NCBI GenBank assembly: GCA_035546615.1 | Contig: DASZWM010000007.1 | Coordinates: 1 to 64,000, forward strand | From: Minisyncoccota bacterium | GTDB lineage: Bacteria; Patescibacteriota; Minisyncoccia; Phycocordibacterales; SBAW01 | Length of the DNA stretch: 64,000 nucleotides | Reading direction: 5' to 3' | The notes under the pieces: generated by a model | Told to the model about the DNA's origin: nothing | Databases searched by the model: none | The model's input: the letters and a program-made list of their open reading frames with translations, nothing else | Part shown: in pieces, positions 3,001 through 64,000 of the stretch | Layout of the letters: every line of letters starts with the position of its first letter | Position numbering within the stretch: the stretch's first letter is position 1 | Program-made: the position numbers and the translations under genes

Positions 3001-6000
3001 CGCCGTGGCGCCGCCGCCCGTCCAGCCCCCGCTGTTATACACAACGCGCAGTTGGCCGCCGCCGCCCACGACATTGTCGCCCTTGAGGATGACGCCGTTG
3101 CCGGAGGTCTGGTTGTAGATGGTCGGGTTCGCGCCGACGGAGTTAAGCGTAAGCGTGTTGTTTGTAGAGTCGAATGCAAAGTCGGAATCATCGGTTATCT
3201 GGCTGCCTGCGCCGATAAAAGGCACGCGGCCGGCAGTGAGGCTCGTAACCCGCAGATTAGTGGTTGTCGCGGTGCCGTTTACCGTTAGGCCGCCGCCCGC
3301 CGCGCCGTTGCCAATCGTTGAGCTTCCGAAGACGCCGATGGATTGCACCGTCGAGCTTGGCGTGAGGAAGGCTGTAGCGCCGGAACCAACGATCTTCCAG
3401 TCACGGAACGCGTTGGCGTAGTAGTCCTGGGATGTGGTCGAGAATGCGCCGCCGGTCGAGGCCCAGTAATTTGCGGATGTGGTCGAGAAGAAGTAGCCCT
3501 TGTCGAAGAGAGCGAGCGTCGAAGTGGAGAGGCGCGAGTTGAAGGTGTTCCAGTCGGTCGACGAGAGATAGCCGTCGGTCGAGCCGCCGGACTGGCTGAT
3601 AGAGAACACGCCGGTTGAGACATTGTACGAAAGCGGGCCGGTCGCGGAGATAGAGGTGGAGCCGAGCAGGCCCAGCGTGTTGGTTGCAGTAAGGCTGTAG
3701 CCGCCGGTGCTGTTGCCTACCAGAATATTTCCGTACGAAGGAGCGGCCGAAAGTCCGGTGCCGCCGTACATGACGCCGAGCGATGAGGTTGCAACCACCG
3801 AGCCCTGCGCGTTGGTGGTAAGGAGCGCGGAGCGCACGCCGAGGATAGCCAGGCCGGTGGTCGTGGCGGTCGTCGTGGTGGAGTAGCGGCCGACGAAGTC
3901 GGTGAGCGTCGTGGTGCCCAAGACCGCGAGGCCGCCGCGGGAGAAGATGCCCGAGATGCCGACATTAATGCCCCCCTGCGCGTATATGTCGCCGCCGACA
4001 TTGAGGTTGTCGGCAATGTTCGCAACGCCGACCTCAAGCGAGCCGATGTTGGCGGCCGGGAGCTTCGCGCCGTTTATATCGACCACCTTCACCGTACTGC
4101 TGTTGCTGGTGACGTAGGCGTATTTGCCCGAGAGGCTCAGGCCGCGCGGGTTGCCGCCGGTCGCGAACGTGCCGACCGAAGTGATGCTCGCGAGGTTGTG
4201 CACGTCGAGCACGACGAGGTTGCCGGACGTGTCGGTAACGTACGCGTAGTCGCCGGCCGCCTCAACCGTGTAGTAGCCGGTGCCGGTCTTGGAGCCCGCC
4301 AGGCTGATGGAGGCCGGGTTGCTTATGTCGAGCACGTAGAGGCCGCCGGAAGCGTCCGCAACATAGAGGTAGCGGCCGGACGCGTACAAGGTCGCCGGAA
4401 CGCTCAGGCCGGTGTAGCTGTATACGGCCGTCGGGCTTGCCGGGTTGCTGATGTCGACGGAAGTGACGGAGCCGTTGTAGATGGAGCCCACGTACAGGTA
4501 CTTGCCCTGCACCGCGACCGAAGACCCCGAGCCGATAGGCGTGCCGGGGGACGAGTACTGGCCCACGATAACGGGCGCCGCCGGGTTGGCGATGTCGACG
4601 ATGTTGACCATGCCGGTGTCGAGGTTCGGCGCGTAGAGGTAGCGGCCGGAGAGCGCGAGCGAAATAGGATGGCCCGCGCCGGAGAGCGTGGAAACGAGGG
4701 TCGGTACCGCCGGGTTGGAGACGTCGATGATAACGAGACCCGCGGACGCGTCGCCGACGTACGCGTACTTGCCGGAGACTACGATGCTCTGCGCTTGGGT
4801 GGTGCCCGTGTAGGAGCCGACGAGCTTGGGGTTGCCCGGCTGGGTGATGTCGAGGATGCGCACGTTTCCGGCGGCAACGTAGGAGTAATGGCCGGAAGTG
4901 TTGATGCCGTATGAAGTCCCGCCGACTAAGGTCGAGGTCGCCAGGGTCGGCGTGCCGCTTGCCACCTGGAGTATATTGCCGCCCGCGACGGTGAGCTTCT
5001 GGGAAGGCGACGTGGTGCCGAAGCCGGCGAGACCGCCGAAGGACGCGATGCCCGAGTTGTAGAAGCCGGTCGTGGTGGCGTTGTCGATGGTCGCGCCTCC
5101 GACCACTTCGAGCTTGGAGAGCGTCGAGGTCGAGGTAAAGCCGATGAGCACCTGGTCGGTCGCGGTCGTCAGGCGGATGCCCGAGCCGTTGAAGTGGGTC
5201 CAGTTGACGTCCGAGCCGGACGCGCCCGCGTCGGTGCCGCACTGGAATTGTCCGGTCGCGGAGTTCCATAGGAGCTTGTCGACCGAGCCGGAGCAGGAAG
5301 AGAGGTTGGCGCCGGTTATCCTGCCGTTTATGTACAGGTTCGTCGTGGTCGAAGTGCCGCTCGTAATGACATCGCCCGGGAAGGTATACACGCTCGAGGA
5401 ATTGCCGCCGAAGGTTCCCGCCTGCGTGGTGATGACGCCGGTGGATGAGGTGTACGAGATGACCGACTGGCCCGAGAGGCTGGTCGAGGAGATCTTGTTG
5501 TTGAAGACGCTCCAGTCGGTATTTGTCAGGAAGCCCGGCTGGGAAGCGTTGGCCTTTTGAGCGCCGGCGTAGTCGATGGAGATAAGGCCGGCGCCGTTAT
5601 CGTTGAAGTCGGACGAAGCGAAGGATGCGGCGCCCTTAGTGCTGCCGTCTGCCTTCGCGTCCTGAATGGAGAACGTGCCGGAGCTTGGGTTGTAGAACAG
5701 CGGCGCGGTGGCGTTGAGCGAGCCGGTCGTAACGAGGCCGAGGCTCGAGGTCGAGGTAAGCGTGTACGTACCATTGCTGTTGCCCACCAAAAGGTTTCCG
5801 TAGCTCGGAGGGGTCGAGAGTCCCGTGCCGCCGTAGATGACCGAGAGCGTCGACGTTGCCGACACGGCGCCGTTAATGGCCTGCAGGGGTCCGGTGATGT
5901 TGGAGATGGTTACGCCGCCGTTGAATGTGTTGCTGTTCGTAAACGTATTGCTGGAGTAGGTCTTCGGAATCGTGCTTGATGCGTCGACGAAATGGATAGC

Positions 6001-59825: not shown

Positions 59826-61118
59826 TTAATTGGTTTCAACCGCCTTCTCCCCCGCTTTGTAAATGTCTCCCGCGCCCATAGTAACCACTATATCGCCTTG
59901 TTTTGCCTCGTTTTTTATATAGTCCGTCACTTCGTCCAAAGATGCTGCCGCTCGCGCCGTCCTGCCCTCCTTTTCGATACGCTCGGCCAAGACAGCGCTT
60001 GATACGCTCGGATCAGGCTCTTCTCGTGCGGCAAATATGGGAGCCACGACGACTTCATCGGCATCCATGAAGGCTTTCGCAAATTCATCCATGAATATCC
60101 TGGTGCGGCTGTAGAGATGCGGGTGGAACGCAACCAAGATGCGTTTGTCGGGGAATTGCTGCCGCACGCTCTTAAGAGTGGTTGCTATTTCGGTCGGATG
60201 ATGTCCGTAATCGTCATATACCGCCGCTCCCCGTGCGGTCAGTCCCTTATATTCGAACCTGCGCCACGTTCCCGCAAAGTCTGCGAGCGCCTGCCTGGCG
60301 ACTACAAGGTCGATCTTCAGGATATCTGCAACAGCAAGTACCGCGGCCGCGTTTATGCGATGGAGCGGCAGTACCTTGAGCGCGAGCGCCGGATCAAAAT
60401 AGTTCCTATAATCGACGACCGTGCACGCGACACCTTCCACGACCGGACGCACGGTAACACTTTCCGTATCGCATACCACGAATCCATCAGCAGGGATCTT
60501 TTGTATCAGCTCGCGGAACGCTGATTGTATGTCAGCCAGGTCTTTGTAGTAATCGAGATGGTCCGCTTCGATGTTGGTAATAACAAGGATATGCGGCGCG
60601 AAGTTGAGGAAATGCCGGCGATATTCGTCTGCTTCAACGACAAAATACTCGCCCTTGCCCGCCCTGAAGTTGCTTTTGGTCTTCGCGCGAAGCGAGCCGA
60701 CTATGCCGGTCGGGTCCAGCCGTCCGGCTTCCGCGACATCTATCATCATCGCGGTCGTGGTCGTCTTGCCGTGGGCGCCCGAGATCGCAATAACCTTCTT
60801 GCCTTCGGTTACCTTGCCCAATGCCTCGAAATACGAAAGCTCCGGTATGCCGAGTTCGCGGGCGCGCAGGCGCTCGACATAGCCGTCGGAGCCTTCCAAT
60901 ATGGCGTCGCTGTATACGAGCAGATCCGCACCGGCAGGCACATGCGCCGCATCGTGTCCTATAAATATTTCTATTCCTTTTGACCGCAGAAGGTCGGTCG
61001 TTGGCGAATCTCCTCTGTCGGAACCTGAGACGGATGCGCCTTCATGCAGGTACAATTGCGCCAAAGCGGAAAGCCCGATACCGCCGATGCCGACTATATA
61101 TATCTTTTTTTCCTGCAT
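59826..61118 (-). CDS. murC: UDP-N-acetylmuramate--L-alanine ligase MurC (start MQEKKIYIVGIGGIG at 61118; track start 61169 overlaps murD)
   Basis: IVGIGGIGLSALA ... ISGAHGKTTTTAMM Mur ligase motifs. Confidence 0.9.
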   Translation of the reverse strand: MQEKKIYIVGIGGIGLSALAQLYLHEGASVSGSDRGDSPTTDLLRSKGIEIFIGHDAAHVPAGADLLVYSDAILEGSDGYVERLRARELGIPELSYFEALGKVTEGKKVIAISGAHGKTTTTAMMIDVAEAGRLDPTGIVGSLRAKTKSNFRAGKGEYFVVEADEYRRHFLNFAPHILVITNIEADHLDYYKDLADIQSAFRELIQKIPADGFVVCDTESVTVRPVVEGVACTVVDYRNYFDPALALKVLPLHRINAAAVLAVADILKIDLVVARQALADFAGTWRRFEYKGLTARGAAVYDDYGHHPTEIATTLKSVRQQFPDKRILVAFHPHLYSRTRIFMDEFAKAFMDADEVVVAPIFAAREEPDPSVSSAVLAERIEKEGRTARAAASLDEVTDYIKNEAKQGDIVVTMGAGDIYKAGEKAVETN

Positions 61119-61122
61119 AGGT

Positions 61123-62451
61123 TTATGTAACCTTCTCTGCGGCTTTATTGAACTGATCCCCGCGGTCATACTCGTTCTTGAACATGCCGAACGAGGCGAA
61201 AGCAGGGCTCATAAGCACAATGTCGCCATCCTCCGCGCCCTCTATGGCAAAGCCAACTGCTTCAGCCATAGTTCCATATATAGGACTGCCTGGTAACTCG
61301 CTTTTTACCCTCTCCGTACCGGTCCCCGCGAGCAGTAATACTTTCTTGCAGTACTTCGGGATCTCCGCAAGGAGCCCTTTCATTTCAAGGCCCTTATCCG
61401 CGCCGCCCATGATAAGCACGATGTTCTTTTTTGATTCATCTCCCAGCGCATACAGGGCGGCAATAGTAGCCTCCGGTACCGTTGCCGTCGTGTCGTTGTA
61501 GATCTTCACTCCTTTTATTTCCCGCAGGAACTGAAGCCGCCCCGGAACCCCGTCGAACGACTCAATCGCCTTCTGTATAACATTCTCTTCAACTCCAAGC
61601 GCGCGGACAGCTGCGGCAGCAAGAGCCGCGTCATAGCGATTATGCTCGCCGGGAATCTTCAAACGCCATTCGGCGGGGATATCTTGCGTCCGCGCAATAA
61701 CGGTACGAGCAAGGATCTGATCCTTAAACCCGTATTTTTTTGCATCCGGCATTACTTGCTCGCCGAGAATAAGCACATCCTCCGGCTTTTGGAACAAAAA
61801 GATATTCGCCTTATCGGCGAAGTAGGCCGCCATATCGTTCTTGTAATAGTTCATATGGTCGGGCATGAAGGTGGTAAATACCGCCACATGGGGGCTTATC
61901 TTCGCCTCCCCGAGGCCCTGGCACTGCCACGAATCGAGTTCGAGTACGGCAGCGCTATCCGCTTGTACCTGCGGTAAAAGCGCGAGCGTCGAGACACCCT
62001 GCACGTTTCCGCCCAGAAGTACGCTCTTCCCTGCCTCCTTCAGGATATGGGCGATAAGATGCGTGGTTGTCGATTTACCGCGCGTGCCGGTAATGCCTAC
62101 TGACGCGACACCCGAGAATTCCATAAAAAGGTCGGCGCTCATGCGCACGGGTACGCCGTTTTTCTTCGCCTCGGCGATAAACGGAGAATCGAGCGGCACG
62201 CCCGCCGCCTTGATAATAAGGTCGCGGTCTTTAAAATCTTCGAGACTGTGTCCGCCAAGGCGGAACGTTATGTTCGAAAACTGCTTCAGTTGCGCTAAAG
62301 AATCGGCAAGGTCCTCTTCTGATTTTAAATCGGTAACTACCAACTCCACCCCCTGTTCCGCTAGAAATCGCGCATCCCCCACCCCGCGGCCCAAAAGGCC
62401 GAGCCCCATGAGGGTTACCCGCTTGCCTTTGAAATAGTCTTTCCAATCCAT
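61123..62451 (-). CDS. murD: UDP-N-acetylmuramoylalanine--D-glutamate ligase MurD
   Basis: VTLMGLGLLGRG ... GITGTRGKSTTTHL. Confidence 0.9.
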   Translation of the reverse strand: MDWKDYFKGKRVTLMGLGLLGRGVGDARFLAEQGVELVVTDLKSEEDLADSLAQLKQFSNITFRLGGHSLEDFKDRDLIIKAAGVPLDSPFIAEAKKNGVPVRMSADLFMEFSGVASVGITGTRGKSTTTHLIAHILKEAGKSVLLGGNVQGVSTLALLPQVQADSAAVLELDSWQCQGLGEAKISPHVAVFTTFMPDHMNYYKNDMAAYFADKANIFLFQKPEDVLILGEQVMPDAKKYGFKDQILARTVIARTQDIPAEWRLKIPGEHNRYDAALAAAAVRALGVEENVIQKAIESFDGVPGRLQFLREIKGVKIYNDTTATVPEATIAALYALGDESKKNIVLIMGGADKGLEMKGLLAEIPKYCKKVLLLAGTGTERVKSELPGSPIYGTMAEAVGFAIEGAEDGDIVLMSPAFASFGMFKNEYDRGDQFNKAAEKVT

Positions 62452-62457
62452 ACTATT

Positions 62458-62543
62458 GGTGCCCAGGAGAGGACTTGAACCTCCATTCCCTTGCGGGAAC
62501 TACGACCTGAACGTAGCGCGTCTACCAATTTCGCCACCTGGGC
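62458..62543 (-). tRNA. tRNA-Leu(CAG), class II with long variable arm, CCA encoded
   Basis: Minus-strand cloverleaf folded by hand: acceptor GCCCAGG/CCTGGGC; D arm GCG-AAATTGGTAGA-CGC; anticodon stem CTACG/CGTAG with loop TTCAGGT; variable arm TCCC-GCAA-GGGA; T arm GGAGG-TTCAAGT-CCTCT; discriminator A + CCA. Confidence 0.85.
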
Positions 62544-63195
62544 ATGACCTGATTATACGCAAGGAATTCCTGATCTTGAGGTACTTCCTGCGCAAGTGAG
62601 GCAGTGGTGTAGTGTAATACATGCCCTGTGCGAGCACAATCGCTTCTTTCTTCGCGTACCTCAGTTGTACGTACGACTTGCCCGTATACCCTCCGACCGA
62701 ACCACGTATACGCAACAGTCGCGTTATCTTTGCGCGGAACCAATCGACGAAGATCGGGCTTGCCGAGGTAAATGATATGTAAAACCGATAACTGTTCTTA
62801 AAGACAGGATCGTAATAGGAATAACTGCATCCGTCCCCGTCGAAGTATCCTCGCGCAAAGTCCATAAAGTACACATCGGGCACCGCTACTGATTCAAGCG
62901 TTTTCGACTTTGCCGGCGTCAGGCCTATGCCCAGAAGGAACCGATACAAAAGCACATCGCCGAATTGGGTACAATACGCCATATCGCCGCTGCCCGAGTA
63001 CTTTTTCGCGGTCTTTGTCTTGATACCCAGGCATTTTTTAAAAAGAGAGATCTGTGCCTTGTCGGTCGAGGTCAGGCTGATATGCCGGCCGTCTTTTGAT
63101 AAGCAGCCGTCGGCGGTTAGCAAGCCTACCGCATATGCAAAATCTGAAGACCATCTGCGTTTTGCTTTGCCTACCGGCTTAGGACCCCTTTTCAT
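62500..63195 (-). CDS. LAGLIDADG-family homing endonuclease (two-motif, single-chain), lower-GC. Its 3' 44 nt overlap the 5' half of tRNA-Leu
   Basis: Motifs LLTADGCLS and YFDGDGCSY; C-terminal residues CPGGEIGRRATFRS are encoded by tRNA nucleotides. Confidence 0.75.
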   Translation of the reverse strand: MKRGPKPVGKAKRRWSSDFAYAVGLLTADGCLSKDGRHISLTSTDKAQISLFKKCLGIKTKTAKKYSGSGDMAYCTQFGDVLLYRFLLGIGLTPAKSKTLESVAVPDVYFMDFARGYFDGDGCSYSYYDPVFKNSYRFYISFTSASPIFVDWFRAKITRLLRIRGSVGGYTGKSYVQLRYAKKEAIVLAQGMYYTTPLPHLRRKYLKIRNSLRIIRSCPGGEIGRRATFRS

Positions 63196-63429
63196 GTATA
63201 CTCCCGCGAGTTCTTACTATACTGAAGCAATAATGTATACCATATCATTTTGCCAAAAATCGGGTATTTTTACAAAAAACATGGGGGAGCCGGCTGGGCT
63301 GCCGGACTCCCCCAATTCCGTCGCCCGGCCCCGGGCTACGGAAAAACTTTCTCGAATATCCACCTGAATGGCTTCGAGTAAAAACACTGTACAAGCAAAG
63401 CTTAGAAAATAAAAGATGTGGATAAAAAG

Positions 63430-63453
63430 GGGCCGGTCGTTTCCAACCGGCCC
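63430..63453 (-). terminator. Intrinsic terminator GGGCCGG-tcgtttccaa-CCGGCCC with minus-strand T-run (TTTTTATCCACATCTTTTATTTTC)
   Basis: Read from sequence 40 nt after the cold-shock gene stop. Confidence 0.5.
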
Positions 63454-63493
63454 TCATCCCAGTGATCCGCCCGCGTGGCGCCGGCGTGTTCCT

Positions 63494-64000
63494 TCACGCA
63501 CTGTCCAAGCGGACTTCCGCGGCCATAAGGCCCTTCGGACCGCTGCCGTAGCGCACAAGCACTGCCTGCCCGGTCTTGAGCTCGAGGAGCCCGAACCGGC
63601 GCAGCGTCTCCATGTGAACGAAGATGTCTCCGTCACCGCCGTCGCAGGTGAGAAAGCCGTAGCCGCGCACGCGGTTGAACCACTTCACCATTCCCCGCTT
63701 GGGGTCACCGACGTTCGAGATCTTGAAAGATCCCTGAATAACAGTAGAGCTGTCCATGCTGATAATGCGATGGGCGCTGAGACCCTTGTCGCGCTTCAGC
63801 ACTTCAACGACGACCCGCGCGCCTTCGTAGGCGGTCTCGAAGCCGCAGCGCCGAAGGCACTCCAGGTGCAGCATCACGTCCGACAGGCCGTTATCAGACA
63901 CGATAAAGCCGTAGCCCTTGCTTGGATTGAACCACTTTATGACGCCGGCGATCTCAACGATACCCTCGAGTGGCGCGGCATCCGGCTCCTCCCGAGAGAC
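63494..64000 (-). CDS. Two-domain cold-shock-domain protein, 5' partial (N-terminus beyond window end). The track start 63901 is internal
   Basis: Revcomp of 63902-64000 continues in frame: ...[25 protein letters not shown]. Second CSD is [27 protein letters not shown]. Confidence 0.8.

Follow-up and report, generated by a model that had tools for sequence, protein, structure and literature searches.

In the 64,000-nt stretch that we analyzed here, hereafter the window (positions 1 to 64,000 of contig DASZWM010000007.1, assembly GCA_035546615.1, from a Minisyncoccota bacterium of the Patescibacteriota), a LAGLIDADG endonuclease gene lies on the minus strand directly upstream of a tRNA-Leu(CAG) gene and reads into it, the pair being bordered by murD on one side and by the terminator of a cold-shock-domain gene on the other (table 1). 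According to the open-reading-frame list, this open reading frame (ORF) spans 231 codons from an ATG start, and its last 15 codons, stop included, make up the overlap with the tRNA, the stop TAG being the final three bases of the 3′ strand of the tRNA anticodon stem. A sequence-only reading of this locus had pictured it in much the same terms, as a two-motif LAGLIDADG ORF of lower GC content that runs 44 nt into a complete tRNA, and this picture was borne out: the GC content is slightly lower across the ORF (0.48–0.50) than in its flanks (0.53–0.62), both motifs are present, and the tRNA is uninterrupted according to ARAGORN and Rfam, the latter detecting neither a group I intron nor any other RNA family at E ≤ 1 between 60000 and 64000, apart from a weak RgsA match (E 0.38) that was dismissed. 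The endonuclease gene is embedded in neither an intron nor an intein, and it encodes a stand-alone 231-aa protein beside an intact tRNA.

Table 1. Features of the tRNA-Leu(CAG) locus in the window, ordered by position.
Feature	Positions	Strand	Basis or remark
murD	61123..62451	-	starts 5 nt after the tRNA 3′ end; synteny anchor
Intact tRNA-Leu(CAG), linked "type B" allele (see below)	62457..62543	-	ARAGORN; Rfam tRNA 52.9 bits, model positions 1–71
ORF/tRNA overlap, 44 nt, tail ..PGGEIGRRATFRS*	62500..62543	-	tRNA positions 1–44
LAGLIDADG endonuclease ORF	62500..63195	-	folded core residues ~16–217; tRNA-encoded tail ~218–231
TATAAT in the last endonuclease codons (..LRII..)	62552..62557	-	8 nt upstream of tRNA +1
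LAGLIDADG motif 2, FARGYFDGDGCS (..GYFDGDGCS..)	62824..62859	-	catalytic Asp121 codon 62833–62835; read from sequence
LAGLIDADG motif 1, YAVGLLTADGCL (AVGLLTADGCL)	63100..63135	-	catalytic Asp29 codon 63109–63111; read from sequence
Shine-Dalgarno-like GGGAG	63201..63205	-	5 nt before the ATG; from sequence
-10-like hexamer TATAGT	63216..63221	-	directly after the relic
Relic of the tRNA-Leu 5′ half, GATATGGTATACATTATTGCTTCAG	63222..63246	-	26 nt upstream of the ATG; family consensus
Intrinsic terminator of the upstream cold-shock-domain gene	63430..63453	-	left limit of the transcription unit

The ORF product matches the Pfam family LAGLIDADG_3 (PF14528) at E 1e-7, with 32.5 bits against a curated cut-off of 22.5 bits; no NCBIfam model matches it, and neither Pfam nor NCBIfam revealed an additional DNA-binding or other domain. 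Its AlphaFold2 model, with a predicted local distance difference test score (pLDDT) of 86 and a predicted TM-score (pTM) of 0.86, shows together with Foldseek the pseudo-dimeric alpha-beta-beta-alpha-beta-beta-alpha fold. The top Foldseek match in the PDB is I-Tsp061I (2dch; E 1.2e-11, TM 0.65/0.73), which phmmer also recovered from the PDB (E 3e-5), and further neighbors are intein endonucleases, the bI3 maturase, I-AniI, I-SceI, and I-DmoI, with WhiA as a distant one. The window protein is like I-Tsp061I and enzymes of the I-DmoI type (2vs7) in fold, in its two motifs, in size, and in its Pfam family, whereas I-Tsp061I and I-DmoI are encoded in archaeal rRNA introns and the identity is only ~23%. 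The catalytic D29 was unchanged in the 31 sequences of a first alignment of homologues, and D29 and D121, which close each LAGLIDADG helix, as well as K96, were invariant in all 79 family sequences, across all clades. With motifs and modeled fold in agreement, the window ORF is best described as a monomeric two-motif LAGLIDADG homing endonuclease whose cleavage is predicted, and the enzyme looks active.

Under NG86, the ratio of nonsynonymous to synonymous substitution rates (dN/dS) had no defined value in 118 of 120 pairs, in which synonymous sites were saturated, and was ~0.12 in the two pairs for which it could be computed; owing to this saturation between copies, transfer events cannot be dated. 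An internal stop or a frameshift was found in 4 of 83 family copies (L005, L043, L062, and L064, comparison loci being designated by L numbers throughout), as expected of the homing-endonuclease life cycle. Where the sequence-only reading had wavered between a free-standing and a degenerating gene, the former term applies, whereas the latter sits badly with an intact ORF, catalytic Asp residues invariant in 79 of 79 sequences, and a dN/dS of ~0.1. As for the tRNA-encoded end of the protein, residues 220–231 are predicted to be disordered in the AlphaFold2 model (pLDDT 31–44), and a stop codon just 5′ of the tRNA in L001, L010, and L084 yields an ORF devoid of any tRNA-encoded tail; because of these pLDDT values below 50 and of these earlier stops, the tail looks incidental to the endonuclease. 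At the opposite end, a conserved basic motif, KRGPKPKG, occupies residues 2–11 (63165–63192, minus strand) ahead of the LAGLIDADG core, with a pLDDT of ~68; it resembles an AT-hook and may extend the contacts with DNA.

Distribution of the family and linkage to tRNA genes

Of the 628 homologues recovered by a protein search, the best 120 were used for identity, length, and tail figures. These 120 proteins are 58–73% identical to the window protein, mostly 229–233 aa long, and, when their source is named, bear Kaiserbacteria, Paceibacteria, or Parcubacteria labels. About three quarters of them carry the tail RGGEIG(K/R)HA(S/T)FRS, which is the translated 5′ half of tRNA-Leu, and about a quarter end at ~216 aa, just ahead of it; the view that such an overlap is a rare accident finds no support in these proportions. 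On a broader scale, when 1.84 billion cluster representatives were searched with a profile, 238 clusters (50% identity) were obtained at E ≤ 1e-30 and 3415 at E ≤ 1e-10, and at least 477 loci were confirmed in a scan that covered a single genome for each GTDB species, 80 of these loci being fetched for context. Homologues are found in at least 477 species-level genomes, labeled almost without exception as Patescibacteria or as uncultured metagenome-assembled genomes (MAGs). In the literature that we searched, LAGLIDADG genes located upstream of Patescibacteria tRNA genes are nowhere described, and papers on tRNA introns (PMC13011429) and on rRNA insertions make no mention of upstream LAGLIDADG genes at tRNA genes. 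This LAGLIDADG family located at tRNA 5′ ends hence seems both widespread and apparently undescribed.

For ~70 of the 80 loci, the distance from the ORF end to the 5′ end of a same-strand tRNA lies between -25 and +53 nt, a proximity that we roughly estimate at ~0.2% for a random gene end. The juxtaposition of ORF and tRNA is not a product of chance. An endonuclease gene in decay that borders a tRNA by coincidence, or a miscalled ORF, would account for the slightly lower GC content and for the disordered tail, but such an accident is refuted by the recurrence of the arrangement in ~70 of 80 independent assemblies and by an ORF that is both intact and conserved, and its probability is negligible in our eyes. 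Regarding the loci that depart from this pattern, the contigs of L018, L033, and L038 end too early for the linkage to be judged, and no tRNA was found in L069 and L075, which form the outgroup in the tree described below.

Three further loci have tRNAs that appear to be interrupted, which ARAGORN misses. In L055 (4637–4955), a tRNA-Phe starts under the end of the ORF and contains a group I intron at position 35/36 (Intron_gpI, 71 bits). In L074 and L077 (~4735–4800), what follows ~100 nt downstream of the ORF can be read as the 5′ half of a tRNA-Asp that stops after the CTGT of the anticodon loop; no intron was detected there at the Rfam gathering threshold, and the arrangement fits the tRNA-Asp intron class described in PMC13011429. 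The same two loci have a partial GCGGTCGTA repeat at the 3′ end of the ORF. The class of group I intron-encoded endonucleases was considered and does not apply to the window; in L055, Intron_gpI sits inside the tRNA, downstream of the ORF.

A neighbor-joining tree of the endonucleases sorts them by tRNA partner. The Leu(CAG) sequences, to which the window protein is nearest, are monophyletic and nested in a large Leu(GAG) group, and more distant clades are associated with Leu(UAG), Phe(GAA), Leu(UAA), Cys(GCA), and Asp(GUC). Two paralogous endonuclease genes, each located before its own tRNA, can share a single locus, as in L014 (Leu-CAG and Leu-GAG) and in L040 (Leu-GAG and Phe), and L065 and L067 present tandem arrays of endonuclease, tRNA-Cys, endonuclease, and tRNA-Leu(UAA). 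In L067, the gene fills the spacer between tRNA-Cys and tRNA-Leu(UAA), starting 17 nt past one tRNA and ending 0 nt before the next, and in the Asp clade the gene lies between tRNA-Met and tRNA-Asp, its distance from the preceding tRNA-Met being 7–78 nt in four loci and ~330 nt in two. The MAGs that hold the two tandem arrays are labeled Planctomycetia (L065) and Omnitrophota (L067).

The upstream tRNA relic and the empty sites

Comparison of the 120 nt upstream of the start codons across loci led to the detection of a relic of the tRNA-Leu 5′ half. It corresponds to tRNA positions ~14–38, that is, the D-loop GG, the 3′ strand of the D-stem, the 5′ strand of the anticodon stem, and the anticodon loop, and it reads (A)AATTGGTATACGCTAnnnnnTTCAG in the Leu(CAG) clade and AATTGGTAGACGCTAttaCCTTGAGG in the Leu(GAG) clade, the anticodon of the relic being in both clades that of the downstream linked tRNA (CAG in the window). 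Of 16 Leu(CAG) loci, 14 carry the relic, which ends there 12–26 nt ahead of the ATG, and a strict pattern recovers it from at least 22 of the 41 Leu(GAG) loci; its local alignment to the cognate tRNA reaches z values of up to 10.6 against shuffles. The window copy is among the more diverged ones: the local alignment between the window's own upstream region and the window tRNA is not significant (z 0.2), which is why the window relic is recognized only via the family consensus, and a repeat search in 62300–63700 missed it because it is too diverged and becomes visible only across loci.

The mean pairwise identity between relics is 0.80, compared with 0.85 for the same block in functional tRNAs and 0.61 for the nucleotides of the endonuclease ORF, and the identity of a relic to its own tRNA (0.70) does not exceed that to other tRNAs (0.71). 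Moreover, relics of both clades are 1 nt longer than real tRNAs between G18 and the anticodon, and this shared extra nucleotide argues that they were inherited with the cassette (by which we mean relic, endonuclease gene, and linked tRNA) and constrained, rather than re-made at each insertion. The Asp-clade loci examined have no tRNA-Asp relic upstream, which indicates that the relic is not required for tRNA linkage in general. In L008 (845–1602), where the ORF and tRNA-Leu(CAG) converge and overlap at the 3′ end of the ORF, the relic upstream has been kept, and the arrangement suggests a local inversion. In L025 (640–745), a complete 5′ half of tRNA-Leu(GAG), acceptor stem included, stands between ~60 nt resembling an endonuclease C-terminus (..LPALKI*YALFIIGE*) on its upstream side and an intact endonuclease gene with its tRNA on the downstream side, in what looks like a nested or tandem cassette event.

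The relic also coincides with a promoter-like signal: in many loci, the TA(G/T)ACG of the relic is followed by a 17-nt spacer and by TATAAT or TATACT 6–8 nt before the start codon, a combination that can be read as a putative sigma-70-like promoter. A second such signal lies at the other end of the gene, where the TATAAT contained in the last endonuclease codons of the window may be a promoter of the tRNA placed inside coding sequence. Most Leu(CAG)-clade loci have an nATAAT at the same spot ahead of the tRNA, TACAAT occurs 9–10 nt ahead of the tRNA in endonuclease-free relatives, the first Ile codon of the pair in ..SLRII.. is ATA in most loci, and the constraint on synonymous sites is weakly raised over this putative internal promoter (0.47–0.50 versus 0.40 overall). 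The last codons (..YLKI..SLRII..) spell TTGAAA-N17-(C/T)ATAAT in the window and in L002, L004–L007, L012, L014, L084, and L086.

We examined the window's closest MurD relatives (L081–L083) and the contig that carries the best endonuclease homologue, P0003 (L084). The first three keep the neighborhood, with a tRNA-Leu(CAG) in the same place that is preceded by a gap of only 11–91 nt and by no endonuclease, their identities to the window in MurD and MurC being 75% and 81% for L082, 74% and 78% for L081, and 70% and 46% for L083. In contrast, L084, with only 57% identity in MurD and 48% in MurC, possesses an endonuclease 72% identical to that of the window, at the same syntenic tRNA. The cassette is thus present or absent at one homologous locus in a manner discordant with host relatedness, the window and L084 being occupied and L081–L083 empty.

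The tRNAs follow the endonuclease in this respect. The three empty alleles have in common a tRNA that we call type A, GGGCA(C/T)GTGGCGGAA..TGGTATACGCGTACGTCTCAGAAGCGTAT, and the window and L084 share a type B tRNA, ..GTGGCGAAATTGGTAGACGC(G/A)CTACGTTCAGGTCGTAG; over tRNA positions 8–44, the window differs by 1 nt from L084 and by ~12 nt from L081–L083. Over its whole length, the window tRNA has an identity of 0.85–0.87 to the endonuclease-linked tRNAs of L084, L003, and L010, and of 0.71–0.78 to those of L081–L083, in a small sample uncontrolled for phylogeny. The relic carries a type-A-like GGTATAC, and the window relic is nearer to the L084 relic than to any tRNA. This likeness of both linked tRNA and relic to those of L084 argues that relic, endonuclease, and tRNA act as one unit with a history unlike that of murC and murD. 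The empty-site comparison, which had been put forward as a check on the locus, and the upstream relic with its matching anticodon together lend support to the earlier suggestion that the tRNA served as a site-specific insertion target.

Since the homology of the relic stops at approximately tRNA position 37–45, the classic insertion region of introns, one may also ask whether the anticodon loop of tRNA-Leu once housed a group I intron, the tRNA having been freed from splicing by a duplicated 5′ exon before the ribozyme was lost, to leave an element that is now immobile. Like the group I intron endonucleases of bacterial tRNA anticodon loops, the window system has a tRNA gene as its presumed target, a breakpoint near the anticodon loop, and a host in the same phylum; unlike them, it lacks a ribozyme and its tRNA is uninterrupted. 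Family members do lie upstream of intron-like tRNAs (the detected intron of L055 and, as judged from the sequence, L074 and L077), the nearest solved structure belongs to an archaeal intron-encoded enzyme, and Patescibacteria tRNAs often carry group I introns, although with HNH and not LAGLIDADG endonucleases (PMC13011429). However, the Rfam search of 60000–64000 gave no ribozyme match at E ≤ 1, the distances from relic to ATG and from ORF core to tRNA (0–10 nt) are short, the Asp-clade and L067 genes lie between two tRNA genes, with no relic in the Asp-clade loci examined, and such an origin would explain neither the patchy distribution nor the co-variation of the tRNA. We thus hold this scenario to be improbable, and the former tRNA-Leu intron envisaged by the sequence-only reading could apply as a remote origin at most, the ribozyme being absent and there being no room for one.

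A candidate homing cassette and its rivals

The architecture of the cassette, namely a tRNA-Leu 5′-half relic over a promoter-like site, an intact endonuclease gene, and a complete tRNA-Leu(CAG), and its linkage to tRNA genes are established with high confidence. Regarding its function, we lean toward the view that the ORF encodes the endonuclease of a compact free-standing homing cassette which replaces resident tRNA alleles, its cleavage and mobility being predicted. Under this hypothesis, the endonuclease would cut endonuclease-free tRNA-Leu(CAG) alleles in the region between the D-arm and the anticodon arm, where the homology of the relic stops, and double-strand-break repair from a cassette-bearing allele would copy the relic, the endonuclease gene, and the linked tRNA, thereby replacing the resident tRNA. 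The relic-like type A tRNA (GGTATACGCG..) would be a good substrate and the linked type B tRNA (GGTAGAC..) a poor one. The relic might be constrained as a promoter, as a homology arm, and/or as a non-cleavable operator, and the match between its anticodon and the anticodon of the linked tRNA speaks for a role that depends on its sequence. The position in the leader or spacer of the tRNA would keep the insertion harmless because the tRNA would retain a promoter and be released by normal processing. As to the 44-nt run into the tRNA, it would be a by-product, in that the endonuclease core ends 0–10 nt before tRNA +1 and, unless a stop intervenes, the frame would continue to the first stop within the tRNA. 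More speculatively, on mRNA read-through, RNase P cutting at +1 would remove the stop codon, which might limit expression.

Several observations weigh against homing. Synonymous sites are saturated and no recent transfer is documented; the higher identity of the endonuclease (72%) than of MurD (57%) between the window and L084 could be explained by stronger constraint combined with losses; and the linked intact tRNA itself holds the presumed target region, which means that immunity must be assumed. The idea that type A is cut and type B resists is, besides, not clean across free and linked tRNAs, L010 being linked to an endonuclease but having GGTATAC, and L031, L054, L056, and L058 being endonuclease-free yet type-B-like. 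In addition, relics are inherited with the cassette and, with ~25 nt at ~75% identity, would make a poor homology arm, the Asp-clade loci examined lack any tRNA-Asp relic, and cleavage, target site, and transfer are all predictions drawn from sequence comparison.

In the main rival of homing, the LAGLIDADG protein would be a domesticated and vertically inherited host factor, for instance a sequence-specific regulator of the adjacent tRNA gene or, via the relic, of its own promoter, kept beside the tRNA by co-transcription and lost in some lineages. The deep conservation under purifying selection with saturated dS, an endonuclease more conserved between the window and L084 than MurC and MurD, a relic conserved like a functional site, a DnaA-box-like 9-mer recurring next to this relic, and the presence among the structural neighbors of the LAGLIDADG-derived transcription factor WhiA and of the bI3 maturase would all be compatible with such a role. 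Domesticated relatives such as WhiA have, however, lost the catalytic Asp residues, when both of these and K96 are invariant in 79 of 79 sequences here, and a WhiA-type regulator in particular was rejected in view of the retained catalytic Asp residues and of the lack of a C-terminal helix-turn-helix domain, or of any extra DNA-binding domain, in Pfam and NCBIfam searches. The patchy presence among close relatives with clean empty sites, a tRNA that co-varies with the endonuclease and not with the host, the existence of pseudogenized copies, and the several paralogues per genome, each attached to a different tRNA, likewise argue against domestication, which we consider unlikely, if less so than an intron origin.

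The homing hypothesis also finds echoes in known systems. Free-standing phage endonucleases act on adjacent conserved genes in a process termed intronless homing, as exemplified by T4 SegB in a tRNA gene cluster, by SegG, and by F-CphI next to psbA (reviewed in PMC2988022; SegB: PMC13096335). As with SegB, SegG, and F-CphI, the window gene lies outside any intron or intein and is tightly linked to a conserved presumed target gene; as with phage free-standing endonucleases generally, a flanking marker (here the tRNA) is co-inherited, and some relatives have the gene at a given locus where others lack it; and with SegB in particular it shares the setting of a tRNA gene region. The phage enzymes, however, have GIY-YIG or other folds and reside in phage genomes, whereas the window family is made of LAGLIDADG proteins in cellular Patescibacteria chromosomes; unlike the phage systems, it is large, specific from clade to tRNA, abuts or overlaps tRNA +1, and possesses a conserved tRNA 5′-half relic. 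In fungal mitochondria, free-standing endonuclease genes insert into a gene and bring with them a duplicate of the part that they displace. There as in the window, a truncated copy of the host gene is left beside the endonuclease gene, and it is the duplication of this part that keeps the host gene whole. In the fungal case, it is the 3′ end of a protein-coding gene that is duplicated and the endonuclease is fused in frame, whereas in the window it is the 5′ half of a tRNA, located upstream, conserved rather than decaying, and overlapping a promoter-like site; the start of murD 5 nt past the tRNA leaves no space for a 3′ tRNA relic. By analogy, the T4 SegB-type phage endonucleases and the duplicating endonuclease genes of fungal mitochondria would be the nearest functional counterparts of the window cassette. 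An integrase-driven tRNA-targeting element, which would bring an integrase gene and a duplicated tRNA 3′ part at its far end, was ruled out as a description of this cassette, which is ~0.8 kb long, has the endonuclease as its sole ORF, and carries as its duplicated part a tRNA 5′ half located upstream.

A bolder version of the homing hypothesis, which we judge possible but doubtful, is that the cassettes behave as gene drives for tRNA alleles, each clade destroying the susceptible isoacceptor gene and installing its own resistant allele, with the relic as a non-cleavable operator and hybrid promoter bound by the enzyme. In that event, an intron-less endonuclease family would drive horizontal tRNA gene replacement across Patescibacteria, and the pre-tRNA leader or spacer would be a safe haven of the kind otherwise provided by introns and inteins. 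In bacteria, most of the LAGLIDADG endonucleases known so far reside in introns or inteins. If homing as we propose it were genuine, residence in a tRNA leader or spacer, with carriage or conversion of the tRNA, would be a third route of persistence for LAGLIDADG genes, and discordant tRNA gene phylogenies in Patescibacteria would find an explanation. From a practical standpoint, the family would offer a rule for the annotation of proteins called hypothetical or intein-containing, the last ~14 residues of which are often tRNA sequence, and a natural set of meganucleases with targets guessable from the adjacent tRNA.

Some minor features of these loci deserve mention. In 20 of 83 loci, the DnaA-box-like 9-mer (TTATCCACA, complement TGTGGATAA, at most one mismatch) immediately precedes the relic on its 5′ side, in both orientations and against a background of ~0.023 per 90 nt, at -47 to -69 from the endonuclease start in L017, L024, L035, L042, and others; in the window, where three exact copies are found versus ~0.5 expected (an estimate), one such copy follows the terminator of the cold-shock-domain gene (63417–63425, minus strand), ~175 nt upstream of the relic. 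Between this terminator and the relic, a second strong terminator-like hairpin, GGGGGAGTCCGG..CCGGCTCCCCC, occupies 63273–63303 on the minus strand and is followed by a T-run at 63263–63270. The ~120 nt between the two terminators had no match in the other loci, and blastn of the 190 nt between the terminator of the cold-shock-domain gene and the relic found nothing there either. On the other side of the locus, the window murD and murC overlap by 47 nt (61123–61169), and an Asp/Glu racemase gene, which the window lacks, stands between murD and murC in L081 (3114–3875) and in L082 (5326–6087). Finally, the L084 contig encodes a separate LAGLIDADG_1 protein (1122–1688), ~3 kb upstream of the endonuclease.

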